Virus record (IMG/VR): IMGVR_UViG_3300035183_000841 | Span: 1 to 64,000 of that record | Origin: a virus | Length of the DNA stretch: 64,000 bases | Strand: one strand, 5' to 3' | Shown here: piece after piece, positions 16,318 to 59,643 of the stretch | Position numbering within the stretch: the first letter of the stretch is position 1 | Layout: each line of letters begins with the position of its first letter | Position numbers and translations under genes: made by a program | The notes under the pieces: model-generated | The model's database searches: none | Seen by the model: only the letters and a program-made list of their open reading frames with translations | Told to the model about the DNA's origin: nothing

Positions 16318-16342
16318 AACGTTGAGCTCGAGTCTCAAGGTT
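16318..16342. repeat. Right copy of 25-bp direct repeat
   Basis: AACGTTGAGCTCG-AGT-CTCAAGGTT. Confidence 0.75.
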
Positions 16343-16469
16343 AGGGCATGAGTGCGACACCGTGGGGGCGCAGGCCCCGGGGGCGCGGGGCCACCCATCT
16401 CCGACGGCCACTAAAATTCCGCCCGGAAACATCTCCGGAGGCAAGCCGCATCTCCGACAGCCACTTGCC

Positions 16470-17171
16470 TCATGAGACATCCAGGATGTGGAACCTCACT
16501 CCGGGGTACGCGGAGATGTCGATGTTACCCGTCGCGACCGAAGGGATGAACACCTCACGTACCTTCGCGTACTCCGCTCGGTACCCGTAGGTATGCTCGA
16601 AAACCTTGCCGTGCAAGGTGATCACGCCGATGGCGTGGAGCCCTCCCCTCGGAAGCCCGTTAACCGCACCGGGTTTCCAGGCGTAGAACCCGCACCGGGC
16701 ATGGCGGGCGCACCCGGAGGAGAGCCGCATACCTCCGGACTTCATGAACGCCATGGGGTTCACGCACCGCGATGGGCCGACCTCCTCTTCCCAGGAGAAA
16801 TCCACCACCCAGGAGCGCAACCTCCGATCCTGGTTGGCATCGACCGACCAGAGCCTAACGCCGACGAGTCCTTGGTCGGCCCAGTCCCTCGCCGCGTTGA
16901 TCGCCCCAGCGACCATGAGCGTGGTGAACTGGCACTCATGCCCCCGATGGCCCGTCGTCGAACGGTCGAGGAACGAACAGTTGCAGACGTTCACCCCTTC
17001 GGCGTACCGGGCATCGCCGACCCATCCGATGTCGTACCCCTCTTCCCTGCGGTCGATGATGAGCCCTACGTGCATCCGGTGGAGCCGTTGGAGCGCCACG
17101 GTTATCGCCTCGGTGGTGAGCATCGCTCCGTGGCTCGAATAGTAGACGACCGGCACGGCGTTAGACCTCAT
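16470..17171 (-). CDS. Protein with G.R.W...CG.YA...G.V.EH..G.RA domain (paralog of 10600-11817)
   Basis: VGVRLW, CGFYAW, IGVITLHGKVFEHTYGYRAEYA. Confidence 0.75.
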   Translation of the reverse strand: MRSNAVPVVYYSSHGAMLTTEAITVALQRLHRMHVGLIIDRREEGYDIGWVGDARYAEGVNVCNCSFLDRSTTGHRGHECQFTTLMVAGAINAARDWADQGLVGVRLWSVDANQDRRLRSWVVDFSWEEEVGPSRCVNPMAFMKSGGMRLSSGCARHARCGFYAWKPGAVNGLPRGGLHAIGVITLHGKVFEHTYGYRAEYAKVREVFIPSVATGNIDISAYPGVRFHILDVS

Positions 17172-17469
17172 CGGACATCGGGAGCTCGAAATACCCTTTG
17201 CGCACCATGAGTGCGATGATGGCGTATCCCGCCATGTCGAGCCAACTATCGTCGAGTCCTTCGTTCACGGGGGCGTTGCCCCGTTCGATGAGGTTCTTGA
17301 TCCTGGCGAACTTGTCCCATATCCGCACCAGGAGCGCCCTCTCAGGGCCGAACGGCGAATGCAAGATGTTGTACGGGCCGTAGTCGTGTTGCTTCCTCAC
17401 GACCGTATCGCGGATCTCTTTGACCACGGCATCGATGGCCTCCTCGAAGGAGGATGGAGATCTCTTCAT
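17161..17469 (-). CDS. Nucleotide modification-associated domain 1 (DUF1599-like, all-alpha NTP-PPase fold)
   Basis: KQHDYG..N, VRIWDKFARIKNL, E.LDDSWLDMAGYAII. Confidence 0.8.
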   Translation of the reverse strand: MKRSPSSFEEAIDAVVKEIRDTVVRKQHDYGPYNILHSPFGPERALLVRIWDKFARIKNLIERGNAPVNEGLDDSWLDMAGYAIIALMVRKGYFELPMSDEV

Positions 17470-17484
17470 TGAAAATTCAACTCC

Positions 17485-17802: not shown

Positions 17803-17990
17803 GGTGCAAGCATTGCGGTGCAACGCAGATGATATCTGCCCGATACTGCCTCATCAACACCTGGCCTAGGTGCCACGACGAGGCGATGCATCTAGAGGAG
17901 ACCACCGCCGACATCGGGCAGATTATCAACGACATCAACCGCGTATCTTGGAGGATCTGGCGTGGAGAGCGTGACAAGAAGAAGAAGTGA
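17757..17990 (+). CDS. Zn-ribbon protein
   Basis: CKHC ... WPRCH...M. Confidence 0.6.
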   Translation: MATTTKKDDAPDTLVRCKHCGATQMISARYCLINTWPRCHDEAMHLEETTADIGQIINDINRVSWRIWRGERDKKKK

Positions 17991-18261
17991 TGAGTGGAAG
18001 ATATCTGCGAAGTGCAGGGAGTACGACCCGGAATGGTGGTTCGAAGATGCATCTCCAGAGGAGAACAGCCGCGCCATCTGGATATGCCTGAACGAGTGTC
18101 CGGTGAAGGACACATGCCTCGAGTACGCCGTGACCCACATGATCGAGCACGGCATCTGGGGTGGGCTCCGGGCCTATGCGAGGCGGAAGTGGCAGGAGTT
18201 CAGCGGGTTCGTGCCGACCGAGGAGCGTAGGCCCATCATCATCGACACCAGGAAGCTCTGA
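17962..18261 (+). CDS. whiB: WhiB-family Fe-S transcription factor
   Basis: C...DPE.WF, ICLNECPV...CLEYA, GIWGG. Confidence 0.92.
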   Translation: MESVTRRRSDEWKISAKCREYDPEWWFEDASPEENSRAIWICLNECPVKDTCLEYAVTHMIEHGIWGGLRAYARRKWQEFSGFVPTEERRPIIIDTRKL

Positions 18262-20729: not shown

Positions 20730-21036
20730 ACCTATCGGAGAATACCTATGCAAGAAGTGCGGCAAGATGCCGATAGATAATCCGTCTGCCGTGGTCATCA
20801 CGTTCCCCGAAGGGCTTAAGATGCCTGTCGCCGAGATAAAGTGCCACGGATGCGGCTCGAAGGTCCGTTCCGAGCTCACTTGGGAGGATGCCATCTTGTT
20901 CGATCAGGCGGGCGTCACCGTGAGGGGCTTCTCATTCGTAAGAGGGCCAGCACTCACCCAAGAAGAGATAGATTCATTCATCGCGAACTTCGACCGGGAA
21001 GTCGAACGATTCTTGGATATCTGTAGCCGCAAATGA
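20722..21036 (+). CDS. Zn-ribbon protein
   Basis: CKKC...CHGC, ALTQEEIDSF. Confidence 0.65.
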   Translation: MAEPIGEYLCKKCGKMPIDNPSAVVITFPEGLKMPVAEIKCHGCGSKVRSELTWEDAILFDQAGVTVRGFSFVRGPALTQEEIDSFIANFDREVERFLDICSRK

Positions 21037-22013
21037 TCGACTCCATCGCTATCTACATGGTTCCACCATCACAGGGGCCCGTGGATGGGTACTCCTACGC
21101 TGGTCTGAAGATGGTCGAGGCACTGAAAGCACTAGGGTACTCGACCCCATGGCGCGATGATGATGCTCCCGTTTCGATCTCTTTCTGCCAGCCGGAATGG
21201 TATTCCCATGCGCAGTCTCAGTTCCGTATCGGATACACCCCATGGGAATCCACCGTGATACCGAAATGGTGGCCCCAACACATGAACGAGATGGATCTCA
21301 TCTGGACCACTTCGAAGTTCTGCAAGGAAGTATTCGAAGACAATGGGGTTACGACCGAGATCCTCGTGGTACCGCACGGGATCGACATCAATGAATTCAC
21401 ACTATCACCTCGCAAGGAGGAAGATACCTTCTATTTCCTCCATATAGGAGAACCGGCGACCAGGAAGGGCGGGCAGATGGTCGTCGATGCGTTCTGCAAG
21501 GTCTTCGCCGATGACGATTCGACCAGGCTCATCATCAAGGCGAACGGATGGGCCGAGTGTCGGCTCCGCGAGCCGTTCGGGCCGGTCGATACTCACCCGA
21601 GGATAGAACTGATAAAGGAACTTCTGAACATCCACGAGTTAAACGCCCTTTACCACCGCTGCCATGCGCTGATCTACCCATCGAACGGAGAAGGGTTCGG
21701 ACTTATCCCGTTCCAGGCCATCGCCACCGGTATGCCGACGGCAGCGGTCGTATGGGGGGGCATAGCGGAGTTCGGCGAGTACTGCATCCCTATCGATTAC
21801 AAGGTGGGGTCATCCGGCCACAGCTACCATCTCGGCGATTGGGCGCATCCAGACTTCGACAGCCTCTGCGAGGTGATGTATGATATCCGGCACCGGTACT
21901 CAGACTATGCAAGGGATGCCTACGATAACGCATTGGACGTTAGGAGGGAGTGGCAGTGGAAAGATATCATAGAGAACGCATTGAACATCAGTCTTTCTAA
22001 AGGCAAATCCTGA
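21033..22013 (+). CDS. GT-B fold glycosyltransferase (GT4-like)
   Basis: YTPWES, VPHGID, RKG, YPSNGEGFGLIP..A.A.GMP. Confidence 0.9.
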   Translation: MIDSIAIYMVPPSQGPVDGYSYAGLKMVEALKALGYSTPWRDDDAPVSISFCQPEWYSHAQSQFRIGYTPWESTVIPKWWPQHMNEMDLIWTTSKFCKEVFEDNGVTTEILVVPHGIDINEFTLSPRKEEDTFYFLHIGEPATRKGGQMVVDAFCKVFADDDSTRLIIKANGWAECRLREPFGPVDTHPRIELIKELLNIHELNALYHRCHALIYPSNGEGFGLIPFQAIATGMPTAAVVWGGIAEFGEYCIPIDYKVGSSGHSYHLGDWAHPDFDSLCEVMYDIRHRYSDYARDAYDNALDVRREWQWKDIIENALNISLSKGKS

Positions 22014-22078
22014 CCCCCTCAGGGGACGGGAGTATACTTTCCCTCATCTTCGGTTGATTCGAGTAAACCATTCAGGAG

Positions 22079-24841
22079 GTGCTTCAGTTGTCTTCACCGC
22101 AACTTACGGAACAAGCTATCAGGGTATTGGAGGAGAGGTATTTCGATAAGGACGAGAACGGGAACATCATCGAGGATTGGGAAGGTCTTTCACGAAGGGT
22201 CGCCAGAGCTATAGCTTCTATCGAGTCCAGGTACGGGGTTGACCCGAGGCCGTGGGAGGAGTCGTTCTTCGACGCGATCTACAACCTCCGTTTCGTGCCG
22301 AACAGCCCAACACTGTTCAATGCTGGATCGCGTGGCGGGCTCGGGCTGCTGAGCGCCTGCTTCGTTCAGGTGCCCGACGATTCACTTGACTCTATCATGT
22401 TGCATGCTTGGCGTTCGGCGAAGCTGTTCCAGGCTGGCGCTGGAGTAGGGTATAACTTCTCCAACCTGCGGGAAGAAGGGGCCATGGTCCGTTCTTCCAT
22501 GCGTCCATCCTCTGGAGCGATCTCCTTCATGTACCACATCTTCAACTCCATCGGCGAGGTCGTGAAGCAGGGCGGTCGTCGGCGCGCAGCGATGATGGGT
22601 CTTCTGAACGATGACCACCCAGAGATCGAGAGGTTCGTCACGTTCAAGAATCATGAATCTTCACTTACGAACTTCAACATCTCGGTGTTCGCCTCCAACC
22701 GGTTCATGGAATCCGTTGAGAAGAACAAGCCGTGGCACCTCCTGGGTAGAACCAGCGGCAACGTTGTGAAGACCATCTCTGCGAAGGCGCTGATGGAGCA
22801 GATCGCCGAGAACAACTGGAAGATGGCCGAACCCGGGATGATCTGGCGCGACGCCATCAACCGGTACAACCCACTAGCTCATCTCGGCGAGAAGTATCAG
22901 ATCAACGCGGTGAATCCATGCGTCAGTGGAGACACCCGCATCCTGACCTCCCATGGTTATGTGCCGATACGTTCGGTGGTGGGGACCAAGGTGGAGGTCT
23001 GGAACGGCCAGCAGTGGTCGAAGGTTACCCCTAAGGTGACGGGTAGGAACCAGGACATGCTGAAGGTCACGCTGAGCGACGGCTCCCAGCTGCGATGCAC
23101 CCTGTACCACGGGTTCCACATCTGGGATGAGTCTCGTCCGTTCAGCCGGAGCACCCCGGTCCTGGTGGAGGCCAAAGACCTCCGTCCGGGCATGAAGCTG
23201 TGGAAGTACCAGATGCCCGTCATCGTAGAGGGCGAAGAGGTCGATACATCCGTCGCCTACACCCAGGGCGTGTACGCCGGGGACGGCTATCTCGCTAAGG
23301 ATCGGCAACAGCCGTGGGTGTACCTGTACGGGGAGAAGACGAACCTGCTGGACGGGATGGTGTACAGGTACCAGCACACTTCCGATAAATCACGCAGGGT
23401 AGAGGTCTGCCTCGATAGGGATGTGATCAAGGAGAAGACCTTCGTACCGTTCAACTGGTCTCTCGACGCCAGGTTGGCATGGCTTGCTGGGCTGATCGAT
23501 ACCGACGGGACCATCACTCGAGATGGGAGCATCCAGATCGGAAGCATCAACAAGGAGTTCCTTGATGAAGTGAGGCTGATGCTTACCACGATGGGTGTTC
23601 GGGCTAAGGTGACGTTCATGCGTTCCGGCGGTCCTCGTCGGATGCCCGATGGTCATGGGGGGACGAAGGAGTACGAGACCAAAGACTGCTACCGTTTGAT
23701 CATCGCGGGGTCTGATGTCGTCACCCTCCGCCAGTACGGGCTCAGCGACTTCCTCCGCAGGGTGGACGTGCGGAACGTCTCCTGCAACCGCAGCGCCACC
23801 CAGTTCGTCCGCGTCGTCTCCGTAGAGCCGGATGGATTCGAGGAGGAAGTGTTCTGCTTCAATGAGCCGATCAATCACACCGGCACGTTCAACGGAATAG
23901 TCACGGCGCAGTGCTCCGAAGCTACCCTTCTCAATTTCGGCAATTGCTGTTTGGGGAGCATCAACCTCGTGAAACACTTGCATGGCAAGGAGATCGACTG
24001 GGATGCGCTTGAAGCGACCACCCGTCTCGCCGTGCGGTTCCTCGATGATGTCATCGACGCCGACAACCATGTCGCGCCGGAGTTCGAGAAGGCCGCGAAG
24101 GATGTGCGCCGTATCGGCATCGGCGTAACCGGTTTCGCAGATGTGCTCGTGATGATGGATATCGTCTACGGCTCCGAATCCTCGTTCCGGGTGGCTCATG
24201 AGGTAGCTTCGTTCCTGAACCGGATCGCCGTTGATGAGTCGAGCAAGATCGCGATGGAGAAAGGACCGTATCCGCTGTGGGACAAGAGCCTTCACAAGGA
24301 CATGGGGCTCGTCCTTCGGAACATCTCGCTCCTTTCCATCGCACCAGAGGGTTCGAGGTCCATCATCACCAACACCTCGCCTTCGATAGAGCCGAACTTC
24401 GGCAGGGTTATAGTGAGGACCAACAAGGGGATCGGATCAGGAACGTTCCCCCATCCGCTCGCATCGAACCCGGCGTTCCGGACGACCTACGAGGTCCCGT
24501 TCTGGGCGCACATCAAGATGCAGTCCGTGTGGCAGAACGCGATGAACGAGAATATGGTCGGTCAGGCGATAAGCAAGACGAACAACGCGCCGAAAGACAT
24601 AAGTCCTGACGAAATGGCAGAAGCGTATCTCGAGGCATGGCGGATCGGATGCAAAGGGCTCACCGTGTATCGGGACACCAGTCGAGATGCGGTTTATTAC
24701 GAGCATAAGGATGATGAAGTCCGGGACGAACACGGCAGGCTCGTGCTAGAATGCGCTACCGGTGTATGTGACATAGGTATGGCGAAGCCTCCTGTAAGGG
24801 CATTCAAGGAGCACGATGACGCAAAGGTATTACGGGGATGA
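22079..24841 (+). CDS. nrdJ: Class II (adenosylcobalamin-dependent) ribonucleotide reductase with intein
   Basis: PNSPTLFNAG, LSACF, QGGRRRAAMM, TNFNISV, NP[intein]CSE, CCLGSINL, SIAPEG, CKGLTVYRD; start may be TTG 22088. Confidence 0.92.
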   Translation: MLQLSSPQLTEQAIRVLEERYFDKDENGNIIEDWEGLSRRVARAIASIESRYGVDPRPWEESFFDAIYNLRFVPNSPTLFNAGSRGGLGLLSACFVQVPDDSLDSIMLHAWRSAKLFQAGAGVGYNFSNLREEGAMVRSSMRPSSGAISFMYHIFNSIGEVVKQGGRRRAAMMGLLNDDHPEIERFVTFKNHESSLTNFNISVFASNRFMESVEKNKPWHLLGRTSGNVVKTISAKALMEQIAENNWKMAEPGMIWRDAINRYNPLAHLGEKYQINAVNPCVSGDTRILTSHGYVPIRSVVGTKVEVWNGQQWSKVTPKVTGRNQDMLKVTLSDGSQLRCTLYHGFHIWDESRPFSRSTPVLVEAKDLRPGMKLWKYQMPVIVEGEEVDTSVAYTQGVYAGDGYLAKDRQQPWVYLYGEKTNLLDGMVYRYQHTSDKSRRVEVCLDRDVIKEKTFVPFNWSLDARLAWLAGLIDTDGTITRDGSIQIGSINKEFLDEVRLMLTTMGVRAKVTFMRSGGPRRMPDGHGGTKEYETKDCYRLIIAGSDVVTLRQYGLSDFLRRVDVRNVSCNRSATQFVRVVSVEPDGFEEEVFCFNEPINHTGTFNGIVTAQCSEATLLNFGNCCLGSINLVKHLHGKEIDWDALEATTRLAVRFLDDVIDADNHVAPEFEKAAKDVRRIGIGVTGFADVLVMMDIVYGSESSFRVAHEVASFLNRIAVDESSKIAMEKGPYPLWDKSLHKDMGLVLRNISLLSIAPEGSRSIITNTSPSIEPNFGRVIVRTNKGIGSGTFPHPLASNPAFRTTYEVPFWAHIKMQSVWQNAMNENMVGQAISKTNNAPKDISPDEMAEAYLEAWRIGCKGLTVYRDTSRDAVYYEHKDDEVRDEHGRLVLECATGVCDIGMAKPPVRAFKEHDDAKVLRG
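22919..23911 (+). mobile_element. LAGLIDADG homing intein in NrdJ, ending in Gln
   Basis: CVSGDT...TLYH...YAGDG...LAGLIDTDG...NGIVTAQ/C. Confidence 0.9.
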
Positions 24842-25364
24842 GACGTATTGGTTCCGCCCTGTAGAGGAATCTGACCTCGAAGTACTGACAGAGCATAGGA
24901 ACGACTTCGAGACTTGGACCAAGCTAACATCGCCCCTGCCCGTGATGGCTCATCGGCAGGCCAGATGGCTCGAGTCTTTAGGCCATGAAAATATGTATTT
25001 CATAGGCCACTACAGAGAGGACGGCATGAGCCTGCTTCGGCTCACCGATATCGACTGGGCGAACCGTCATGCCGCCGTAGGGCTGGATGTGTTCAAGCCG
25101 TACCGTGGGTTCGGCCACGCGAAACCACTCTTCGCCCTGCTCTGTAGGTATGCCATACGGGAACTGGGGATGCACAGGCTATGGCTCTTGGTGCTCGAAG
25201 ACAACATCGCCGCCCAACGGGTCTATCGTTCGGTGAACTTCATTGAGGAGGGACGGTTCAGACAGCACATATTCAGGCACGGGAAGTTCAAGGATTACGT
25301 ATTGATGGGAGTATTGGAGGAAGAATTCGATGATTCAGCAATTCAAAGTTCATATGAATCCTGA
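24816..25364 (+). CDS. GNAT N-acetyltransferase (RimJ/PseH-like)
   Basis: RPVEESDL, IDW.NRHA, YRG.G, N.AA.RVY...F..EGRFRQH. Confidence 0.85.
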   Translation: MTQRYYGDETYWFRPVEESDLEVLTEHRNDFETWTKLTSPLPVMAHRQARWLESLGHENMYFIGHYREDGMSLLRLTDIDWANRHAAVGLDVFKPYRGFGHAKPLFALLCRYAIRELGMHRLWLLVLEDNIAAQRVYRSVNFIEEGRFRQHIFRHGKFKDYVLMGVLEEEFDDSAIQSSYES

Positions 25365-26442
25365 GGCCGTCAACAAGGTGAGAACCGTTCTCGGTTCCGG
25401 CTACATCGGCCAGGGATCCCGCGTCGAGGAGTTCGAGGAGCGGCTGAAGGAGAAGCTTGGTTTCAGTTATGGGGTAACGGTGAACTCAGGGACGGCCGCA
25501 CTCACGCTCGCGCTCCGATTGATCGGGGTCGGGCCGGGGGATTCGGTGGTGAGCACCCCGATGACCTGTTTGGCTACCAATGCCGCTATCACGCTCACCG
25601 GGGCAGACATCGTATGGGCTGATATCGATAAGTACGGCAACATCGATCCCGAGTCGGTAAGTGAGTCGATAAGGCCGAACACGAAAGCGGTCATGGCTGT
25701 CGACTGGGGTGGTATCCCTTGCGACTTCGATGCGCTTCGGAAGGCGATCGATGCAGCTCCGGCGAGAGGCACCCACGATATCCCGATCATCCAGGATGCT
25801 GCCCACGCCTTCGGTGCGACGTACCATGGCCGTCCCGTCGCTGCATGCGCCGACTACACCGCCTTCTCTTTCCAAGCCATCAAGCACCTCACCACCGGTG
25901 ATGGGGGGTTGCTCGTCGTCCCCGCGTCCCAGTACAAACGGGCTAAGCTGCTCAGGTGGTACGGACTCGATCGCACTTCCGGGGACAGGATGCGATGCCT
26001 CCAGAACGTCTATGAGATCGGCGATAAAATGCACATGAACGATATCGCCGCCGCGATAGGGCTCGGAAATCTCGAGTCCGTCGATGAGGTCGTGGCCAAA
26101 CACCGCGAGAACGCCAGGTACTACAACGACATCTTCTCGCTCTACGGCGGACTGGTGGAAGTCCCACCAGGTGACGTAGATCCCTCTTACTGGATATACA
26201 CCATCCACGTACCGGAACCAGCGGATTTCGAGCAGTTCATGTTCCACAACGGCGTCTCGGTATCGAGAGTACACAACCGGAATGACAACTACACCGCCTT
26301 CGAAGCATACTGGAAGCCGCTGCCGAACCTAGATAAGTGGTTCTCCACCATGACCTGTATCCCCGTCGGGTGGTGGCTGACCGTCGAGGACCGTAGTCGA
26401 ATCACTGAGCTGGTTATCCGCTACATCACTCCGAGCTGGTGA
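25330..26442 (+). CDS. DegT/DnrJ/EryC1/StrS PLP-dependent sugar aminotransferase
   Basis: VNSGTAAL, QDAAHAFG, FSFQAIKHLTTGDGG. Confidence 0.93.
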   Translation: MIQQFKVHMNPEAVNKVRTVLGSGYIGQGSRVEEFEERLKEKLGFSYGVTVNSGTAALTLALRLIGVGPGDSVVSTPMTCLATNAAITLTGADIVWADIDKYGNIDPESVSESIRPNTKAVMAVDWGGIPCDFDALRKAIDAAPARGTHDIPIIQDAAHAFGATYHGRPVAACADYTAFSFQAIKHLTTGDGGLLVVPASQYKRAKLLRWYGLDRTSGDRMRCLQNVYEIGDKMHMNDIAAAIGLGNLESVDEVVAKHRENARYYNDIFSLYGGLVEVPPGDVDPSYWIYTIHVPEPADFEQFMFHNGVSVSRVHNRNDNYTAFEAYWKPLPNLDKWFSTMTCIPVGWWLTVEDRSRITELVIRYITPSW

Positions 26443-26443
26443 T

Positions 26444-26899
26444 ATGAAAACCAGGTTCGTCGATAAACTCATCGGTATGGCTTCGTCTGTGGACGGGCGG
26501 TACCGTCTTGCAGCTATGGTCTATGACGACAAACACAACCCGATATCGTTCGGGACAAACTCCTATGTGAAGACCCATCCCGTCCAAGCGGCGCTGACCG
26601 GAGCGCAGAAGATCTTCATCCATGCTGAGATACAGGCACTGCTTCGAGCTTCCGGGAGACAAAGTAGAGGCATCTTGGTCGTGCGTGTGAACAAACATGG
26701 GCTTGCCATGGCGAGGCCGTGTCGTGCCTGTTATTGGGCCATCATCGTTTCTGGGCTAAGTGAGATTATGTATTCAGATGAAACTGGTTCTATCATGAAA
26801 GAGTATGTCGATAGACCTGATGAGATTCAAGGTAGGATTCGTATGTTTAACGGTCGGCCATTGGGATCTCATGTACGACCACATGAGGAGTTTGTATGA
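26444..26899 (+). CDS. Zn-dependent cytidine/dCMP deaminase-fold protein
   Basis: HAE ... ARPCRAC. Confidence 0.85.
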   Translation: MKTRFVDKLIGMASSVDGRYRLAAMVYDDKHNPISFGTNSYVKTHPVQAALTGAQKIFIHAEIQALLRASGRQSRGILVVRVNKHGLAMARPCRACYWAIIVSGLSEIMYSDETGSIMKEYVDRPDEIQGRIRMFNGRPLGSHVRPHEEFV

Positions 26900-27461
26900 G
26901 TGCTGGCCCCATCCAAACAAAGAGGTTTACATCGTACCGAATCTCGACTTCCGGTTATCTGTTTCCGGCGCACTTAACAAGGGCTTCCGTTGGGCCTTGC
27001 GGGATGGATGCGACTACATCGTCTACGCCGCTGACGATGTGATCATCAAGGGTGACGACATCGAGCGGCTCCTCACGACGCTGATAGAGGAGGATAAGTG
27101 GGTCGTCTCCCTACAGCTCGGTGGGCTTGCGTTCTTCGCTATCAATCCGGTTGTCTTCGATGAAGTGGGATACTGGGATGAAGGGTTCTACCCGGCGTAC
27201 TTCGAAGATAACGATTGGTACTACCGCATCAAACTGAAAGACCCGAACAGGTACAAAGAGATACCCGGCCAATCGGTCCATCTAGAGAGTGTCACCTTGA
27301 AGCGGATGAGCCCGCATGAAGTGGAGAAGCATCATATCAATTTCCGCCGTAACCGAGACAGGTACATCGCCAAGTGGGGCGGAGAGCCTTACCATGAGAC
27401 GTTCACCGTTCCATGGAACGGCGCGGAACCACCTGGTTGGGCGGTAGGAGATACAGCATGA
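26805..27461 (+). CDS. GT-A fold glycosyltransferase (GT2-like)
   Basis: LNKG, ADD, VGYWDEGFYPAYFEDND, Y..KWGG; start may be ATG 26820. Confidence 0.85.
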   Translation: MSIDLMRFKVGFVCLTVGHWDLMYDHMRSLYECWPHPNKEVYIVPNLDFRLSVSGALNKGFRWALRDGCDYIVYAADDVIIKGDDIERLLTTLIEEDKWVVSLQLGGLAFFAINPVVFDEVGYWDEGFYPAYFEDNDWYYRIKLKDPNRYKEIPGQSVHLESVTLKRMSPHEVEKHHINFRRNRDRYIAKWGGEPYHETFTVPWNGAEPPGWAVGDTA

Positions 27462-27829
27462 TTAACGATCAGGAACGTGCATTCATACGCCGCATCAACA
27501 GAACTCGACTATTGCATGGCCTCCCGAGACTGAAGCACGCACCGGACCAGGTATTCATCAACGCTCAGAGGCATAGCAAGAAGATGCTCGCGGAGAACCG
27601 TTTGTACCACAGCGACCCGCTCTCGACCGCCGTTGAAGGTGTGGACGTATGGAAAGTCGCGAGGGAGAACGTAGGTGTCGGCCTGTCTGTTCGGTCATTG
27701 CACAGGGCATTCATGGCATCTGAATACCATCGCCAGAACATCCTCGCTCGTGACGTGAGCAAGGTTGCCGTCGGCATCGCCTTCGGTGACGAAGGGCAAC
27801 TTTGGGTTACGGTCATCCTGTATGGATGA
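27458..27829 (+). CDS. CAP/SCP domain protein
   Basis: IN.TR..HGL, AQ.HS..M, ENVG, FM.S..HR.NIL, VGI. Confidence 0.85.
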   Translation: MINDQERAFIRRINRTRLLHGLPRLKHAPDQVFINAQRHSKKMLAENRLYHSDPLSTAVEGVDVWKVARENVGVGLSVRSLHRAFMASEYHRQNILARDVSKVAVGIAFGDEGQLWVTVILYG

Positions 27830-27913
27830 TTAGCCGATTTCTGGCTAAATCTTGCCTTTTTCATCGAGAAACACTACGATTTCATCAGAAAATTCCTAAA
27901 AATGGAGTGATTT

Positions 27914-28231
27914 ATGTCGAAATTATGGGTTCCACCCAACCAGACCTTCATCTGCTTATGGCTCGATGAGAACGGCAGATATGTGGTCAACGAAGATGGT
28001 GAGTTCCTCTGTGCGGAGTCCAAACGGATGGGTGATCCAGAGGTCGAGAAGAACATGAGGGCCGCTGCCAGGTACTACGGCATCGAAGGCGGTCAGCCGG
28101 TGTGGCGGCGCGGTCGGAAGGTCACGCATATGGAGTATGACACCCAGATGGAGCGACTCCTGGCCGGGCAGATCCCCGATGAGCGCGAGGCCATCGAAGC
28201 CGCAAAGGAGATTATGAAGGATGATGGATGA
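27914..28231 (+). CDS. Conserved phage protein upstream of portal
   Basis: AARYYG...GRKVT..EY..Q.ERL..G.IPD. Confidence 0.7.
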   Translation: MSKLWVPPNQTFICLWLDENGRYVVNEDGEFLCAESKRMGDPEVEKNMRAAARYYGIEGGQPVWRRGRKVTHMEYDTQMERLLAGQIPDEREAIEAAKEIMKDDG

Positions 28232-29783
28232 TTTCAGTGAAGGATTCGTAGAGATCGACCTGGACATCCTAAGTACGCACTCCATCCAGAAAACTGGATT
28301 CGATGACCCATTCTTCAAAATTCATATTGATGGACTTCCTGATGAGCTTCGCAAGGATATCTCTAAGCTAGAGAAACAGGCAGCACGAGAGGCGAAATCT
28401 AAGTCTCTAGATGCCGAAGCGCTCACCGCATACGATGTCTTCCAGCTCGTGCCTCCGCCATACAACCTGGAGGCTCTCGCCAAGCTCTACGAGAAGAACG
28501 CGGCCCACAATGCGGCGGTGACCGCTAAGGCCATCAACATCTGTGGTCTCGGGTACGACATCATCAACTCTCCGGAAACCGAGCTGAAGATAGAACGTCT
28601 CCAGGGGAGCAAACAGAAACTCGAGAAGCTCACGACTGAGCTGAAGAAGGAGCGGATACGGCTTCAGCGACTCCTCGAAGAACTCAATGACGATGACGAG
28701 TTCTCGGAGATTATGGTGAAGATATGGACAGATGTAGAGTCCCTAGGCAATGGGTACCTAGAGATCGGGCGGAACCTTTCCGGCAAGATAGGGTATATCG
28801 GCCATATCCCGGCCCACACGATACGGATACGAGCGAACAGGGACGGGTTCATCCAGGTCGTTGGAAATAGGTACGTATTCTTCAGGAACTTCCGTGATTT
28901 GGAAACACCTAACCCCCTGAAGAACGACCCAAGACCGAATGAGATAATCCACTTCAAGAAGTATTCTCCTAACTCAACCTATTACGGGATCCCCGACATC
29001 ATCGCTGCCATGCCAGCGGTTATGGGCGATGCGATGGCGAAGGAATACAACATAGACTATTTCGAGAACAAGGCTGTCCCGAGGTACGCCTTCATCACCA
29101 AAGGGGTCAGGTTGTCCCAGGAGGCCGAACGTACGCTGAAGGAATATTTCAGGACAGAACTCAAGGGCAAACATCACGGAACCCTGTACATCCCACTCCC
29201 AGCTGGAATGAACCAGAACGTCGATGCCCGATTCGAGCCCATCGAGGTACGACCTCAGGAACAGTCATTCGTAACCTTCATTAAGGAATCCAGGCTCGAA
29301 GTCCTTATGGCTCACCGTGTTCCGCCGCCCAAGGTGGGCATCTACGAGGACACGAACCTCGCCGTCTCACGGGACGCCGACAGAACGTTCAAGGAGCAGG
29401 TCTGCCGACCGGAACAGCGGCGGCTGGAAAAGAAGATGAACATCTTCTTCCAAGAACTATCAGGTTCAAGAGCATTCCGACTCAAGTTCAAGGAAGCAGA
29501 CATCATCGATGAGGATGTCCGCAGTCGGTTCCATGACCGATACCTGCGCACCAGGGTCCTCAAACCGAACGAGGTCCGCAACGCGCTCGGGTTCCCGTCC
29601 GTCCCCGAAGGTGAAGACTTCCTCCCCGTGCCCGGAACGGTGTCGGCGGGCAACAACCCGGTCGGACAGGCAGAGGGTAACCGCAGGAAGACCTCCGACA
29701 GGCTCCGTCCGACCGATGGCGGGCCCCTCCAGGCCGAACGCGGGGCGGAACAAGATCGGGGCGCCCCTGAGAGGAGACGATGA
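28221..29783 (+). CDS. Portal protein (PBSX/HK97-like)
   Basis: PPYNL..L, GNGYLE, EIIHFKKY....YYGIPD, YFEN.A.P, HRVPP, PNEVR..LG. Confidence 0.92.
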   Translation: MMDDFSEGFVEIDLDILSTHSIQKTGFDDPFFKIHIDGLPDELRKDISKLEKQAAREAKSKSLDAEALTAYDVFQLVPPPYNLEALAKLYEKNAAHNAAVTAKAINICGLGYDIINSPETELKIERLQGSKQKLEKLTTELKKERIRLQRLLEELNDDDEFSEIMVKIWTDVESLGNGYLEIGRNLSGKIGYIGHIPAHTIRIRANRDGFIQVVGNRYVFFRNFRDLETPNPLKNDPRPNEIIHFKKYSPNSTYYGIPDIIAAMPAVMGDAMAKEYNIDYFENKAVPRYAFITKGVRLSQEAERTLKEYFRTELKGKHHGTLYIPLPAGMNQNVDARFEPIEVRPQEQSFVTFIKESRLEVLMAHRVPPPKVGIYEDTNLAVSRDADRTFKEQVCRPEQRRLEKKMNIFFQELSGSRAFRLKFKEADIIDEDVRSRFHDRYLRTRVLKPNEVRNALGFPSVPEGEDFLPVPGTVSAGNNPVGQAEGNRRKTSDRLRPTDGGPLQAERGAEQDRGAPERRR

Positions 29784-29911
29784 GTGGTGAATCTTGCGGA
29801 TATCACTGTCCGGTATGTAACCATTGCTGCGCTTACGTATTGAAGATTTCCGGGCCACAGATAGAGTTGGAGTGTCAACGTTGCGGATGGAGATGGGCAG
29901 TAGAGATTTGA
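29780..29911 (+). CDS. Small Zn-ribbon peptide
   Basis: CPVC ... CQRC; ATGA overlap. Confidence 0.55.
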   Translation: MSGESCGYHCPVCNHCCAYVLKISGPQIELECQRCGWRWAVEI

Positions 29912-29951
29912 CATTTGCCTTTTTACTTTAGATGTTTCATCTTCATATTGA

Positions 29952-32039
29952 ATGCCGTACCGTAACGTTGCCGAAGCGGAGAAGAAAAATCCAGGCATCC
30001 GCGGACTTTCGCCCAAGGCGAAACGCGCCTGGGTGGCAGCATTCAACTCGGCCAAAGCCGAGGGAAAAGACGACGAGGCAGCCGCGAAGATCGCCTGGTT
30101 CGCGGCGAAGAGGGTTATGACGAAGATACAGGTACAAGATGACAACCTAGCGATAGGTATCCCATTCGAAAAGATCGACATCAAGAACAGGACGGTAGAG
30201 GGTTTCGCGACCCTAGATAACATCGATTCATCTGGAGAGATAGTTGATTTCGAAGCTTCCCGACAGGCTTTCCGTAACTGGCTCGGCAATATCCGCGAGA
30301 TGCACGGCCCGAAAGCCGTTGGGAAGGCACTCCACGTCGAGGAACGCGACCGGGAAGTCGATGGGAAGAAGTACCGTGGCATGTACGTTAAAGCGTATAT
30401 CTCCAAGGGCGCCCAAGACACCTGGGAGAAGATCCTCGACGGGACACTGAAAGGGTTCTCGCTCGGCGGTCGTGTGCTCGAGAAGCGGCCGGAGATCATA
30501 AAGTCCGACAATGATATCTACGCACGCCGCCAGGTCATGCGGATCACGAAATACACCCTCGGTGAGCTATCGGTGGTGGACAATCCGGCGAACCCGCTTG
30601 CCCTGTTCGACGGGGTAGAGCGCACATCCCTCGTGAAGTTCGCCGATGGGGCCCTGGAGGCGACCGATGTCCTGGCCGATGACGCTCCCATCGAGCGGTT
30701 CATCTTCTACTGCGATACGTGTGACGTAGCCAAGGTCGTCTCGGACGTTTCCGATGCGGAATGCCCGACGTGCCCGGAAACCATGATCCACGTGGCGACC
30801 ACGTACGAGCGGCCCGATGAAGGAGATATCCGCAAGATGGTGGAAGAGTTCAAGGATAAACTGAGCAAACTACAGGAAGAGGCCGTGGATGATACCGGCA
30901 AGGTCACGAAAGCATCCGTCAACTATCGCGTCGCCGACGGCGGATATTCGTGCGCCGGATGTATGCACTACCTCCAGAACCTCGGCAAATGCGAGAAGGT
31001 TGAGTACGACATATCCGCGAACTACGTCTGCGATCTCTTCGAGAAACGCGCAGAGCCAGAAGAGATCGAGCCTATCGAGGTGTACGGCAACGTCACCCAG
31101 AAATCAGAGATGACGGAGGAGGTGTCTCCCCTCATGGACGAGGAAGCCGAAGTGATCGAGAAGCGGGAGTTCTCGGATAAGGAACGTAAACGACTCGCTC
31201 GACAGGGGCTGGCGTTGCCGGATGGGAGTTACCCGATCGTTACGGTAGAAGACCTACAGAACGCCATCCGCGCATACGGTCGAGCCAGTGACAAGGAGAG
31301 GGTCAAGCGTTGGATCATCCGAAGGGCTCGTGCTCTGGGCAGGACGGATCTCCTGCCAGACGAGTGGAAGGTGTCCATGTCGAAGTCTGAAGATCCGGAC
31401 TTGCAAATGAACTCTACAGATGATACTAATCTAGTTACTATTTTGGATGAGTTCATAAACGAGATAGTGAACAGGATAAACAAATCTGCCCCTCAGGCTG
31501 AACGGGGAGGTGATCTGGAAACGGTGGATAAGGATTCCCTATCTAGGATTCTGGACATCCTCAAGTCCGCCATCGGCAATGTTGAGGACATCCTTACGAA
31601 GGCCGGTATCACTCGTCTGAATGATGAGGATGCCGCTGAAGTGGACCACGTTGAGGATGTATCGTTGCCCGCTGCGTCTGCCGACGCGGCCCCAGGAAAG
31701 GTCGATACGGACGGCGTTGGGGCAACCCAGGAGACGTTTGCCGAAACTCCTGGAGAGACGAACGTTCTCCCGCATGCCTTCGGCAAGGCCGAGGGTTCTG
31801 ATGAGGAGACGGAGAGTCTCGTGAAGGCGGTCATCACCGAGGAGATCGGCAAACTTGCAGGGAAACTGGACACCGCTTTCGAGGCTATCGAACAGCGTTT
31901 CTCTGAGTTCGCAGAGCGCATGGAGAAGCTTGAGAACAGCGGTGCTGGTAAGAAGTCTAGCGAAGTAAATGTCTCAGAAGAACTGAAGAAGTCCCGCGAT
32001 TCGTTCTGGGGTGGAAAGTTCTTCTCGGGGGATATCTAA
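29952..32039 (+). CDS. Multidomain prohead protease/scaffold (ChaB-like N-terminus, HK97/XkdF-like protease, Cys domains, scaffold tail)
   Basis: Between portal and capsid; VEGFAT..D..G, IREMH, KGFSLGG, ELSVVDNPANP. Confidence 0.85.
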   Translation: MPYRNVAEAEKKNPGIRGLSPKAKRAWVAAFNSAKAEGKDDEAAAKIAWFAAKRVMTKIQVQDDNLAIGIPFEKIDIKNRTVEGFATLDNIDSSGEIVDFEASRQAFRNWLGNIREMHGPKAVGKALHVEERDREVDGKKYRGMYVKAYISKGAQDTWEKILDGTLKGFSLGGRVLEKRPEIIKSDNDIYARRQVMRITKYTLGELSVVDNPANPLALFDGVERTSLVKFADGALEATDVLADDAPIERFIFYCDTCDVAKVVSDVSDAECPTCPETMIHVATTYERPDEGDIRKMVEEFKDKLSKLQEEAVDDTGKVTKASVNYRVADGGYSCAGCMHYLQNLGKCEKVEYDISANYVCDLFEKRAEPEEIEPIEVYGNVTQKSEMTEEVSPLMDEEAEVIEKREFSDKERKRLARQGLALPDGSYPIVTVEDLQNAIRAYGRASDKERVKRWIIRRARALGRTDLLPDEWKVSMSKSEDPDLQMNSTDDTNLVTILDEFINEIVNRINKSAPQAERGGDLETVDKDSLSRILDILKSAIGNVEDILTKAGITRLNDEDAAEVDHVEDVSLPAASADAAPGKVDTDGVGATQETFAETPGETNVLPHAFGKAEGSDEETESLVKAVITEEIGKLAGKLDTAFEAIEQRFSEFAERMEKLENSGAGKKSSEVNVSEELKKSRDSFWGGKFFSGDI

Positions 32040-32062
32040 AAAGGAGGTGAATCAGTAAAAAA

Positions 32063-33049
32063 TTGGACACTAGCGAACTGCTTCAGAAGGTAGTCGATAC
32101 AACGCTAGTTGGCTCCGGCGGTGGCGGTATCCTCAACCCGGAACAGGCAGACCGATTCATCGACTACATGGTCGACAACGGCGTCCTGACGAAGGAAGCC
32201 CGTGTCGTTCGGATGAACGCTCCGGTGAGGGAGATTGACCGTATCGGACTAGGGACCAGGCTAGCCCGACTCGCAACGGAGAACGTCGATGATGGCGTCA
32301 ACGCTGCCCCTACGTTCTCGAAAATCGCTCTCCAGACCGTGAAGATCCGTCTCGACTGGCGACTCACATCTGAATCACTGGAGGACAACATCGAGCGAGA
32401 TGACCTTGAGGACCACGTTGCACGGATGATGGCAACCCAGCTCGGCAACGACCTGGAAGACCTGTACATCAACGGAGATGTGGCCAGCTCGAACGCACTG
32501 CTCAAGGCACTCGATGGGTGGCGGAAGCTGAGCCTCAACAGCGCCCATGTCGTCGGCAACCCGTCTCAGAGCGGCACGTACAAGCTCTCTAAGGAGACCT
32601 TCAACGCTGCTCTCAAGGCGATGCCGAACAAGTACATGCAGCGCAGGGCTGACCTACGGTGGTACACCGGGTCCGGGGTCCTTCAGGACTTCCTGAACGG
32701 GCTGACCGACCGGTCGACACCTCTCGGTGACGCCGTAATCTTCGGCACTCCCGGCGGGACCCAGGGTGGCGGCCTAACTTCGATTCGCCCCTTCGGAATC
32801 CCCCTCGTGGAGGTCCCTCTGTTCGACTCAACGCTGAGCGGCACCTACTCCGGTGCTTCGGGGAACCACAGTTACGTAGAGCTGACCTTCCCGCAGAACC
32901 GTATCGTGGGCATCCAGCGCGAGATCAAGGTCTACCGCGAGTTCATGCGGCGCACCGATGCCGTCGAGTTCACCGTCTACACCCGTGTAGCGGTGGCGAC
33001 GGAAAATCTCGACGCCCTCGTGTACGTCAAGGATGTCAAGCTCCAGTAA
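32063..33049 (+). CDS. Major capsid protein (HK97 fold)
   Basis: GGILNPEQA.RFIDY, E.LEDNIE, DLE.L.INGD; strong SD; terminator after. Confidence 0.92.
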   Translation: MDTSELLQKVVDTTLVGSGGGGILNPEQADRFIDYMVDNGVLTKEARVVRMNAPVREIDRIGLGTRLARLATENVDDGVNAAPTFSKIALQTVKIRLDWRLTSESLEDNIERDDLEDHVARMMATQLGNDLEDLYINGDVASSNALLKALDGWRKLSLNSAHVVGNPSQSGTYKLSKETFNAALKAMPNKYMQRRADLRWYTGSGVLQDFLNGLTDRSTPLGDAVIFGTPGGTQGGGLTSIRPFGIPLVEVPLFDSTLSGTYSGASGNHSYVELTFPQNRIVGIQREIKVYREFMRRTDAVEFTVYTRVAVATENLDALVYVKDVKLQ

Positions 33050-59001: not shown

Positions 59002-59643
59002 CTACCCGACGGACAAATCCCGCTCCATCGCTAAACAAATCTCTAGAGCAAGCTCTCTCGGTATCTTTGCTTTTATCTCAGATGGGGTTCTACTTTGGAC
59101 GCCTGTCAATGACCCCCTAGGAGCCCTTACATGGCAAGGGTCTCCATTACTACAGATAGGTCTGGGGGCCCAACTTTTAGGGAACCCTCCCCAAAGGTCG
59201 GTCGGCTTCATGTACTTCAGCCCGTACTGGCAGTAAGTTACAGTAACCCTATCGAACCTGGCCATCATAGGAAGTTTCCTGAGCTTAGCCCTGGGGTTCT
59301 CTATAACGAAGAATCTAGGAGACATCTGTTCGATAAGATTTATTGTCTTCTCGACCAGCTTAACTGCATGTGCAGCTTCCGGCGTCTTCGGGGAATGGGG
59401 GTTCGGGTCATCCGGTCCGGTCCAGTTCCGCCCAATCCGAAGAACCGAAAACGCCTCGCACGGAGGGCTAGCGAGGATCGCATCTGGCCTCCATGGGAAA
59501 TCCTCTGGTTCTACTTCCAAGATGTCAGCAACGATATCAGGGTGGAACTTCGGATCTATATCGAGGGTGATAACTTCATGCCCGCGCTCTAGAAACGGCT
59601 CACTCCACCCCTTGAGACCACAGAAAAGGTCTATAACATTCAT
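59002..59643 (-). CDS. Short DNA cytosine-C5 methyltransferase-like protein
   Basis: IDLFCG, LDID, ASPPC, IENP, YCQYG...KPT, IP..L. Confidence 0.8.
   Translation of the reverse strand: MNVIDLFCGLKGWSEPFLERGHEVITLDIDPKFHPDIVADILEVEPEDFPWRPDAILASPPCEAFSVLRIGRNWTGPDDPNPHSPKTPEAAHAVKLVEKTINLIEQMSPRFFVIENPRAKLRKLPMMARFDRVTVTYCQYGLKYMKPTDLWGGFPKSWAPRPICSNGDPCHVRAPRGSLTGVQSRTPSEIKAKIPRELALEICLAMERDLSVG

Follow-up and report, generated by a model that had tools for sequence, protein, structure and literature searches.

A predicted sugar-tailoring and glycosyltransferase module beside the head genes of an uncultured relative of large Streptomyces phages

Gene content and order at the locus

The window analyzed here is a stretch of 64,000 nucleotides, positions 1 to 64,000 of IMG/VR virus record IMGVR_UViG_3300035183_000841, which is itself 84.7 kb long and 64% complete. 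A second, near-identical record of 62.8 kb reaches 8.6 kb further upstream; related loci carry L-numbers below and compared records carry G-numbers, with G000 being the window's own record and G001 the near-identical one. The phage is an uncultured relative of large Streptomyces phages. Its capsid protein is 54% identical to Streptomyces BE-cluster capsid proteins, and at the DNA level its similarity to known phages consists of matches of 53–78 nt, all inside the GT4 gene. Six plus-strand open reading frames occupy positions 21033..27461, with the genes for portal, protease, and capsid immediately 3′ of them (Table 1). A preliminary description had placed six co-oriented, mostly overlapping or abutting genes just before the head genes, a description that was confirmed, with the coordinates exactly as given. 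Junctions from GT4 through NrdJ, GNAT, and DegT to the deaminase are, in order, a gap of 66 nt, overlaps of 26 and 35 nt, and a gap of 1 nt; the deaminase then overlaps the GT2-like gene by 95 nt, which overlaps the CAP gene by 49 nt. A 578-aa protein, possibly a terminase, that is encoded upstream of the portal in BE phages had no match in G000 or G001.

Table 1. Features of the window that bear on the predicted module, with coordinates in the window
Feature	Position	Strand	Evidence
DUF1599 ("nucleotide modification associated domain 1") protein	17161..17469	-	PF07659 4.7e-09; equals phrog_1485
GT4 (GT-B, group 1) glycosyltransferase, core of predicted module	21033..22013	+	PF13692, PF00534, PF20706, phrog_2170
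Class II (B12-dependent) ribonucleotide reductase NrdJ	22079..24841	+	TIGR02504
LAGLIDADG intein in NrdJ, about residues 281-611	22919..23911	+	TIGR01445 N-terminus, residues 281-346; PF14528, residues 464-551
GNAT N-acetyltransferase	24816..25364	+	PF13302 1.2e-11
DegT/DnrJ/EryC1-family PLP-dependent NDP-sugar aminotransferase	25330..26442	+	PF01041 1.8e-77
Small cytidine-deaminase-fold zinc deaminase	26444..26899	+	PF00383 28.7 bits, cut-off 25; HAE and PCxxC
GT2-like GT-A glycosyltransferase, core of predicted module	26805..27461	+	phrog_29879, family alignment, predicted model
CAP/YkwD-domain protein, last gene before head block	27413..27829	+	PF00188 2.1e-08; TIGR02909 1.2e-10, below cut-off
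Portal	28221..29783	+	PF04860 2.5e-34
Prohead protease/scaffold	29952..32039	+	phrog_9427 4.9e-57
Major capsid protein	32063..33049	+	phrog_1623 4e-96
C5 DNA methylase	59002..59643	-	Pfam/PHROG scan

Four of these genes, GT4, GNAT, DegT, and the GT2-like GT-A gene, are predicted to form a glycosylation module, which is split by NrdJ and the small deaminase, unrelated genes of nucleotide metabolism that are assigned to nucleotide supply. The module genes are under purifying selection: in comparison with L005, an approximately 95% identical contig from another record, dN/dS was 0.04–0.17 for GT4, GNAT, DegT, deaminase, and GT2, and 0.04–0.15 for portal, protease, and capsid, with NrdJ excluded on account of its unequal length in the two records. 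Promoter and terminator counts between positions 18000 and 34000 did not exceed those in shuffled sequence, so that operon boundaries cannot be claimed; module and head genes would presumably share one late operon.

The GT4 product was assigned on models above their cut-offs, PF13692 (3.9e-09; 37.4 bits, cut-off 27) and PF00534 (7.1e-09; 35.9 bits, cut-off 26.4), and also matched phrog_2170 (3e-37) and PF20706, the GT4-conflict family (3e-07; 30.2 bits, cut-off 26). The Pfam matches cover only the C-terminal half of the protein, and identity with the Paradiddles glycosyltransferase is 36% over the full length. GT4 homologs were found in phage records of Streptomyces (127), Rhodococcus (9), and Arthrobacter (5). 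Large Streptomyces and Rhodococcus phages have been isolated by students by the hundred.

The GT2-like protein scored 21.6 bits against PF00535, below the cut-off of 23.3, and 4.4e-20 against phrog_29879; PF00535 was carried by half of its homologs among the matches listed (27/54). The first 95 nt of its reading frame overlap the non-conserved tail of the deaminase frame. Its AlphaFold model (pLDDT 93) places an N-terminal strand at residues 10–16 and matches heparosan synthase, WrtF, SpsA, and B4GalT in Foldseek (E 1e-5 to 1e-6). In the family alignment, A1, D78 is invariant, AYFEDND and KWGGEP motifs are present, and E134-D135-N136 is invariant or nearly so; D78 and the E134-D135-N136 stretch are what we take to be the DxD-type and ED motifs, respectively. 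The protein is thus modelled as a GT-A fold with both acidic motifs. At least 536 relatives were found in IMG/VR.

NrdJ matched TIGR02504 at the equivalog level (494.6 bits, cut-off 399.95) in three stretches broken by the intein, which, with boundaries read from the sequence, appears to interrupt the NPC-SE active-site motif ahead of its Cys. A ribonucleotide reductase (RNR) gene also follows GT4 in Paradiddles, TunaTartare, L032, and L033, and this adjacency is inherited backbone synteny common to Streptomyces BE-cluster phages rather than, as the preliminary description had it, an RNR interleaved with a sugar pathway. A like claim for the deaminase did not hold, as no homolog was found in any of 160 related loci, and its membership in the module was rejected. 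With HAE and PCxxC zinc motifs and a CDA fold, the deaminase belongs to the dCMP/cytidine deaminase superfamily. Because a word-index search returned only the deaminase itself, homologs were taken from an exhaustive search, in which 764 library representatives matched at E≤0.001; H60, E62, P92, C93, and C96 were invariant in 45 sequences, and PF00383 was present in 45/45 aligned members. The nearest structures to its model (pLDDT 85) are the PBCV-1 dCMP/dCTP deaminase, human dCMP deaminase, and cytidine deaminases, and the enzyme probably serves pyrimidine nucleotide metabolism; a second, canonical dCMP deaminase is present in the record. Homologs of DegT and of the deaminase may, judged solely by equal size, occur together on one Logan contig (2,309 bp). 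The CAP/YkwD protein likewise had no homolog in the 160 related loci.

Conservation of the glycosyltransferase core and of the GNAT-DegT pair

The pairing of GT4 with a GT2-like gene beside head genes is conserved in this phage group and its uncultured relatives. In 7 of 80 loci a GT4 homolog and a GT2-like gene were no more than 6 kb apart, and the homologs in L032, L033, L038, and L052 were 38–42% identical to the window's GT4. Two of the four records with the closest GT4 homologs had a capsid match, with capsid proteins 50–59% identical to the window's, and in relative G003 the capsid gene lies a few kb downstream of GT4-NrdJ and a GNAT gene directly precedes the GT2-like gene. In the wider GT2-like family, other sugar enzymes were neighbours in 14 of 24 loci, and terminase, portal, head, or tail genes lay within 3.3 kb in five and were absent at that distance in 19. 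Small cultured phages have GT2-like homologs inside the structural block, between capsid and neck genes in phiPsal1, between portal and protease genes in S-CBS4, and between the tail terminator and tail genes in KellEzio.

Gene neighbourhoods also support GNAT and DegT as a conserved gene pair that would act as an amino-sugar N-acetylation unit. The DegT product met PF01041 over its full length (261.4 bits, cut-off 19.8, residues 10–361), and its residues 1–360 align to solved chains 4zwv/4xau (283 bits), which are presumably AtmS13 (the PDB name shown is "putative aminotransferase"), to CalS13 4zas (234 bits), and then to ArnB. The lysine of its FSFQAIKH motif, invariant as K185 in 20 relatives, aligns with that of FSFQALKH in 4zwv and is presumably the PLP-binding lysine. 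Among 80 loci of the DegT clade, GNAT homologs (24–42% identical) were found in 14 and were directly adjacent in 11, six of these with the window's gene order and one as a GNAT-GT2 fusion. Phage LR756511 has adjacent DegT (40% identical) and GNAT (30%) genes in a sugar cluster with GDP-mannose 4,6-dehydratase, and GNAT-GT2 fusions adjoin DegT homologs in L011 and L100. The fused GNAT domains of L011 and L025 (BLASTP E 6e-04 and 0.011) are generic GNATs only, so the homologs of the window's GNAT were counted without them. Sugar-tailoring genes differ among relatives, which have none, GNAT only, DegT with GNAT, or a full dehydratase pathway.

Predicted sugar, its source, and its acceptor

We consider it plausible, if somewhat short of probable, that the phage converts a host NDP-4-keto sugar into an N-acetylated 4-amino sugar, which it attaches to virion proteins. 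DegT would transaminate an NDP-4-keto sugar, with dTDP-4-keto-6-deoxyglucose, GDP-4-keto-6-deoxymannose, or a UDP-4-keto sugar as candidates; the nucleotide sugar is kept broad because two homologous DegT-GNAT contexts carry GDP-mannose 4,6-dehydratase. The GNAT would then N-acetylate the resulting amino sugar with acetyl-CoA, and the two soluble glycosyltransferases would sequentially attach the acetamido sugar and another sugar to a late-made acceptor, most likely virion proteins of the capsid and/or tail. The preliminary description's amino-sugar synthesis and transfer interpretation therefore stands in part: the GNAT-DegT unit with its glycosyltransferases is borne out by the conserved pair and by the recurrent co-occurrence of GT4 and GT2-like genes, and the membership of RNR and deaminase is corrected.

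The host would supply the keto sugar, or else the unsequenced third of the genome would encode a dehydratase that makes it. As had been observed earlier, no dehydratase is visible: no SDR dehydratase/epimerase (PF01370) was found in six frames of the 84.7-kb record or in the 62.8-kb record, and a 92%-complete relative with GT4 and GT2-like genes had no dehydratase, ThyA-family, or TET gene. The pathway is thus incomplete as sequenced, in a record that is itself 64% complete.

Portal, protease, and capsid genes (28221..33049) form the candidate acceptor block. The capsid C-terminus equals that of relatives and is collinear with Paradiddles, and among 26 reading frames from 27413 to 56139, including head and tail genes, none carried a Ser/Thr-rich tail; the highest Ser/Thr content in a 20-residue window was 45%, inside a minor tail protein. 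Rhodococcus homologs of the window's GT4 belong to cluster CB, in which a phage glycosyltransferase is suggested, not tested, to glycosylate virions (PMC13313380), and capsid and tail-tube glycosylation has been reported in mycobacteriophages (PMC12619734, PMC11256854).

An alternative explanation could be DNA hypermodification, in which an acetamido sugar on a modified phage base would block host nucleases and NrdJ, deaminases, DUF1599, and methylases would belong to the same programme. Glycosylation of 5hmC by phage GT-A and GT-B enzymes has been described, in some cases with structural genes nearby (bioRxiv 10.1101/2023.12.21.572611), the window's GT4 has a match to Pfam's "GT4 in conflict systems" family, and GT2-like genes elsewhere are often found amid nucleotide-metabolism genes (ThyX in 3/24 loci, two of the three above the equivalog cut-off, GMP reductase in 4/24, and DUF1599 in two, L039 and L040, as phrog_1485) and in L031 beside two homologs of phrog_842, "glucosyl-HMC glucosyltransferase". 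The preliminary description had counted DUF1599-like, MazG-like, and methylase genes as compatible with hypermodification. The DUF1599 gene is indeed present 3.6 kb upstream, and there is a C5 DNA methylase within the window as well as a Dam-type methylase outside it, but the C5 gene is 31 kb away with no oxygenase beside it and no MazG match (PF03819) was found in the record. Nor did six frames of the 84.7-kb record match the ThyA family (PF00303), ThyX, or TET/JBP (PF12851), or relatives G003 and G005 match PF00303 or PF12851, with the TET negatives being weak because no control genome scored above the TET model cut-off. As the record is incomplete, these negatives fall short of proof of absence. 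PHROG and Pfam scans recognised no modification enzymes in the left 18 kb or in the further 8.6 kb upstream in G001. The 92%-complete relative carries a weak ThyX-like gene, and the thymidylate synthases near GT2-like genes elsewhere are ThyX, which is not known to make hydroxylated bases. These hints are therefore weak, and we regard hypermodification as improbable.

It would likewise be surprising if the soluble transferases decorated a cell-wall polymer or cytoplasmic precursor of teichoic-acid or polysaccharide type, a modification of the host envelope that would stop superinfection or the adsorption of progeny to debris. Both transferase families mostly build cell-envelope glycans, with weak NCBIfam matches here to BshA, MshA, and EPS enzymes and Foldseek matches to polysaccharide synthases and SpsA. 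TarP is a prophage-encoded enzyme. In a discussion of phage GT-A enzymes, this ribitol-phosphate (teichoic acid) glycosyltransferase is named as their top solved homolog (bioRxiv 10.1101/2023.12.21.572611). Against this, a scan of 104 reading frames turned up no flippase, lipid-carrier transferase, or membrane glycosyltransferase, the module is directly upstream of and co-oriented with the head genes with which it may share a late operon, and the cultured relatives, which are large phages, have been described as lytic (PMC12509530). Finally, we think it very unlikely that the genes share no pathway and are independent auxiliary genes, with the GNAT acting on polyamines or proteins and DegT in another PLP reaction. 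This would be consistent with the GNAT's best solved relatives, which are SpeG-type spermidine/diamine acetyltransferases (1e-13, with PseH 4ri1 at 8e-05), with GNAT and DegT both falling below every NCBIfam equivalog cut-off, and with the interspersed and unrelated NrdJ, deaminase, and CAP genes, but it would not account for the adjacency of GNAT and DegT in 11 loci and LR756511, for the fusions beside DegT homologs, or for PseH being the best NCBIfam family of both the GNAT and its L103 homolog. Rather, the GNAT may well acetylate an amino sugar.

Virion glycosylation, our preferred reading, would extend to a more general and distinctly speculative scheme, in which a fixed GT4 and GT2-like core before the head genes has tailoring genes swapped around it, and the window's phage represents a minimal "shunt" whose two enzymes divert a host NDP-4-keto intermediate (the RmlB or Gmd product) into a non-host acetamido sugar on the virion surface. 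If this is true, an arms race with recognition by the host or in the environment diversifies the glycan coat of the particle. To our knowledge phage-particle glycosylation has been shown experimentally for a few mycobacteriophages only, and such cassettes suggest that it may be common, both among uncultured phages and among the large phages of Streptomyces and Rhodococcus. GT4 and the widespread GT2-like family offer a concrete, testable pairing, the GNAT-DegT unit is amenable to in vitro reconstitution, and mass spectrometry of cultured relatives, the BE-cluster phages with the same GT4, could identify the acceptor.

Comparison with known systems

Among phage DNA glycosylation clusters (T4 alpha/beta-GT; methyltransferase with 5mYOX and GT; ThyA homolog with arabinosyltransferases), the window shares GT-A and GT-B genes near nucleotide-metabolism genes. 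Unlike them, neither its record nor the 92%-complete relative yielded an enzyme for the hydroxylated base, whether a ThyA homolog or a C5-methyltransferase with TET-type oxygenase for 5hmC, 5hmU, or 5hoC; the C5 methylase stands without an oxygenase.

The pairing of a DegT-family aminotransferase with a GNAT N-acetyltransferase resembles two bacterial pairs, PseC/PseH of the pseudaminic acid pathway and WecE/WecD of the dTDP-Fuc4NAc pathway, WecD being a GNAT. Best NCBIfam matches were PseC for DegT (187.9 bits, cut-off 423.5) and PseH for the GNAT (63.9 bits, cut-off 93.1); membership in a pseudaminic-acid pathway was rejected on these scores and because the rest of that pathway was absent, with no PseB-type dehydratase (PF01370 in six frames), PseG, PseI, or PseF among the 104 reading frames scanned in this 64%-complete record. 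The closest solved sequences to DegT are 4zwv/4xau, presumably AtmS13, and CalS13, from actinomycete aminopentose pathways, followed by ArnB. AtmS13 is postulated to install the C-4 amine of TDP-2-deoxy-4-keto-pentose (PMC10951976); unlike those pathways, the window's record yielded no SDR, UDP-glucuronate decarboxylase included.

Flavobacterium phage immuto, huge phage LR756511, and L033 have, like the window, DegT homologs (39–40% identical in immuto and LR756511, 28% in L033) amid acetyltransferases and several glycosyltransferases, and in L033 a GT2-like gene, a member of the same GT4 family, and a class II RNR, though of another subtype, stand in one row. Unlike the window's record, each of those clusters includes a 4,6-dehydratase.

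Virion glycosylation in mycobacteriophages Che8, Corndog, and Myrna (Freeman et al. 2023, Cell Host Microbe, as presented in PMC11256854, PMC12619734, and PMC13313380) also involves actinobacteriophages with several soluble glycosyltransferases, with capsid and tail proteins as proposed acceptors. No close homology to the Che8 glycosyltransferases gp108-110 was seen, and any relationship is remote at best: BLASTP matches were motif-level only (E 0.005, 0.015, and 1.0), and hhalign of family A1 with gp109 gave 91% probability (E 9e-07, 179 columns), a value that could also arise from generic GT-A similarity. In mycobacteriophages, capsid or tail-tube subunits bear acceptor tails at their C-termini (PMC12619734), in contrast to the lack of Ser/Thr-rich C-terminal tails on the 26 frames considered above. 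Che8 glycosyltransferase genes are positioned at the far genome end and the window's before the head genes, and the window has in addition a DegT and GNAT sugar-tailoring unit.

The six genes and their setting

The six open reading frames lie at exactly the coordinates given in the preliminary description, all on the + strand (see the table). Junctions, in gene order, are +66, -26, -35, +1, -95 and -49 nt, and the cluster is followed 3′ by genes for a CAP/YkwD protein, a small phrog_9394 protein, the portal, a protease and the capsid protein, in that order. The last protein of the cluster scores 21.6 bits against the Pfam GT2 model, below the cut-off of 23.3, and is a member of a large GT2-like family with a predicted GT-A fold (pLDDT 93). 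The 95-nt overlap between the deaminase and GT2-like genes is genuine; the N-terminal strand of the GT2-like protein is conserved and confidently modelled and the overlapped part of the deaminase is a non-conserved tail, as seen from relatives that stop near residue 120–125 of the window deaminase. Values of dN/dS against a ~95%-identical relative were 0.04–0.17 in the five cluster genes tested, NrdJ being excluded because lengths differ, with a similar range for the portal, protease and capsid genes against the same relative.

Genes of the cluster, with positions in the window and the basis of each assignment
Gene product	Position	Strand	Basis
GT4 glycosyltransferase	21033-22013	+	Pfam and PHROG matches
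NrdJ, class II RNR	22079-24841	+	above NCBIfam equivalog cut-off; interrupted by LAGLIDADG intein
GNAT acetyltransferase	24816-25364	+	Pfam
DegT aminotransferase	25330-26442	+	Pfam
Cytidine-deaminase-fold protein	26444-26899	+	HAE and PCxxC motifs
GT2-like protein, 218 aa	26805-27461	+	PHROG/family membership, GT-A model

The window covers positions 1–64,000 of an 84,709-base record that is classed as linear and 64% complete. Its major capsid protein shares 54% identity with the capsid proteins of BE-cluster Streptomyces phages, which have genomes of ~130 kb and belong to the family Stanwilliamsviridae, and matches to known phages at the DNA level were only stretches of 53–78 nt, all within the GT4 gene. 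A 62.8-kb record from elsewhere is ~95% identical to the window and extends 8.6 kb further upstream, where it encodes an ATPase, an HNH nuclease, an RNase H and a phosphatase. The left end of the window holds a ThiF-family (E1-like) protein and an AAA_25/KaiC-like ATPase (14-685 and 2428-3384). G+C is 60–64% at ~6000–18000 vs ~53% in the cluster, and the open reading frames tried there on both strands had no Pfam or PHROG match, with the exception of a DUF1599 gene (17161-17469). The CAP/YkwD (SCP/PR-1-like) domain protein (27413-27829) occupies the site of an endolysin or LysM protein in BE-cluster phages. No terminase large subunit was found beside the portal (27461-28221), and the 578-aa protein whose gene is the second one 5′ of the portal gene in the BE-cluster phage Paradiddles had no homolog in the whole record or its near-identical relative; for related Rhodococcus phages, the terminase is reported to lie more than 16 kb from other structural genes (PMC13313380).

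A putative sugar module and its product

Window proteins were searched by tblastn against 160 related loci, 80 obtained from IMG/VR through the GT2-like family (the best 80 of at least 536 relatives, neighbourhood counts being taken from 24 of 40 full-flank loci) and 80 from metagenomes through the DegT clade (the best 80 of at least 581, counts from 24 loci), with open reading frames called by a simple longest-ORF rule. GNAT homologs occurred in 14 of these best 80 DegT loci and directly adjoined DegT in 11, six in the window's order of GNAT then DegT, four directly downstream, and one as a fusion of GNAT and GT2 that runs up to the start of DegT. A Pfam scan covered three open reading frames on each side of DegT in the 24 loci, of which 7 had a GNAT, 4 an SDR dehydratase/epimerase and 9 a GT2. 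The 595-kb phage LR756511 has adjoining homologs of DegT (40% identity) and GNAT (30%), in a cluster that also holds a GDP-mannose 4,6-dehydratase, a second DegT, a hexapeptide acetyltransferase and a GT11. A GT4 homolog lay less than 6 kb from the GT2-like gene in 7 of the best 80 GT2-like loci, four at 38–42% identity; two of the four records with these closest homologs also match the capsid protein (uncultured relatives G003 at 58% and G005 at 50–59% identity), and the other two, fragments 17–24% complete, had no capsid match. There was no tblastn match to the deaminase, CAP protein, portal or capsid gene in any of the 160 loci. By these co-occurrences, the module comprises GT4, GNAT, DegT and the GT2-like gene. 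Its DegT and GT2-like proteins have homologs of 60–68% identity on Logan and JGI contigs of 8,603, 8,613, 8,585 and 31,170 bp.

The solved chains that align best to DegT, over its residues 1–360, are 4zwv/4xau (283 bits) and CalS13 (234 bits), followed by ArnB and perosamine synthases. The best NCBIfam families are PseC for DegT, far below cut-off, and PseH for GNAT, also below cut-off; the best solved relatives of GNAT are SpeG-type acetyltransferases. The simplest product would be an NDP-4-acetamido sugar. The earlier observation that no dehydratase is visible was upheld by a six-frame search for SDR dehydratases/epimerases, which found none in the 84.7-kb record (64% complete) or the 62.8-kb near-identical record, and the keto-sugar precursor would be supplied by the host or by an enzyme encoded in the missing third of the genome. 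In GT2-like neighbourhoods elsewhere, drawn from the best 80 of at least 536, an SDR dehydratase occurred in 8 of 24, DegT in 4 and an acetyltransferase in 5. One related locus, L033, has a complete set side by side, with a Polysacc_synt_2 dehydratase, DegT, a hexapeptide acetyltransferase, three GT2-type genes, GT4 and an RNR. G005, at 92% completeness, combines GT4 with the GT2-like gene and has neither DegT nor SDR; in G003 a GNAT immediately precedes the GT2-like gene, and the sequenced 61% holds no DegT. Tailoring genes differ within the phage group, the window having DegT and GNAT.

The RNR and the deaminase

The preliminary description had the RNR and deaminase interleaved with the sugar genes, and neither is read here as part of the sugar pathway. 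An RNR gene lies directly 3′ of the GT4 gene in Paradiddles, in TunaTartare (another BE-cluster phage), in the uncultured G003 and in L033, an order common to BE phages and uncultured relatives and therefore inherited, with no pathway link; homologs of the deaminase were present in 0 of the 160 related loci. When the window NrdJ (22079-24841) was compared with RNRs of related loci (L001:9471-11423, L095:4011-5954 and L033:9407-12637), BLASTP gave nothing better than E 0.2 with the BE-phage RNRs, and the L033 RNR matched the BE type at 5e-27 and the window NrdJ only at 3.5e-05. The RNR beside GT4 has kept its position and not its type, as if a different class II RNR had taken over the site.

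The NrdJ intein (LAGLIDADG, ~331 aa, 22919-23911) directly precedes the Cys residue in the active-site motif NPC-SE and has an apparent C-terminal Gln, not Asn (…NGIVTAQ|CSE); the L033 RNR has its own intein at a different insertion point. A LAGLIDADG element also splits a DnaB-type helicase gene (59953-62229, − strand; PF03796 and PF14528), so that replication or nucleotide genes with inteins number at least two in this phage.

The cluster deaminase belongs to a large family of 100–150-aa proteins (764 representatives at E ≤ 0.001), and its model is nearest to PBCV-1 dCMP/dCTP deaminase, human dCMP deaminase and tetrameric cytidine deaminases. A canonical, ComEB-like dCMP deaminase (PF00383, 4e-23) is encoded beyond the window at 69498-69986 (+) of the record (L003:5498-5986). 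We read the RNR and small deaminase both as probable nucleotide supply. Near GT2-like genes of other phages, again among the best 80 of at least 536, GMP reductase occurred in 4 of 24 loci, ThyX in 3 and a dNMP kinase in one; the placement of GT2-like genes among nucleotide-metabolism genes is a common pattern and not special to the window. A GMP reductase/IMPDH-family gene (62954-64114, − strand; PF00478, 8.4e-80) crosses the window end; it is of the family seen beside GT2-like genes in those 4 of 24 loci, which come from unrelated phages. Further along the record, DNA polymerase III alpha is divided between two overlapping open reading frames (70152-71441 and 71386-73752, +), the first with PHP and the beginning of the NTPase domain and the second with the remainder, which could reflect a frameshift, a split gene or a sequencing error.

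The acceptor and comparison with known systems

The sugar was proposed earlier to decorate virions or DNA. Virion proteins may tentatively be taken as the likeliest acceptor, a reading that falls somewhat short of probable. The module lies directly 5′ of head genes in the window and in G003, and in small cultured phages homologs are found between capsid and neck genes (phiPsal1, with a group-1 GT and a methyltransferase), between portal and protease genes (S-CBS4), and, for GT4, between the tail terminator and tail genes (KellEzio). Terminase, portal, head or tail genes were at most 3.3 kb away in 5 of 24 GT2-like loci from the best 80 of at least 536. A 2026 paper (PMC13313380) puts forward, as an untested suggestion, glycosylated virions for cluster CB Rhodococcus phages, members of which carry homologs of the window GT4. 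Against a virion acceptor, or neutral to it, are the lack of Ser/Thr-rich tails on the 26 open reading frames examined at 27413-56139 and the only remote similarity to the virion-glycosylation enzymes of mycobacteriophage Che8.

DNA is an unlikely acceptor, as ThyA-family, ThyX, TET and MazG all had no match in the 84.7-kb record, G003 and G005 had no ThyA-family or TET match (the TET model lacking a positive control above cut-off), and the thymidylate synthases neighbouring GT2-like genes elsewhere are ThyX. Transfer to the host envelope is likewise improbable, no membrane or lipid-carrier enzyme having been found among 104 open reading frames scanned.

The window cassette belongs to an already known, mostly untested kind of phage sugar cassette, of which the annotated genome of Flavobacterium phage immuto is an example with DegT and acetyltransferases, as in the window. 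Specific to the window are a dehydratase-less version, within the sequenced part of the genome, and a core of GT4 and the GT2-like gene that is common to relatives of BE-cluster phages and around which the tailoring genes vary.
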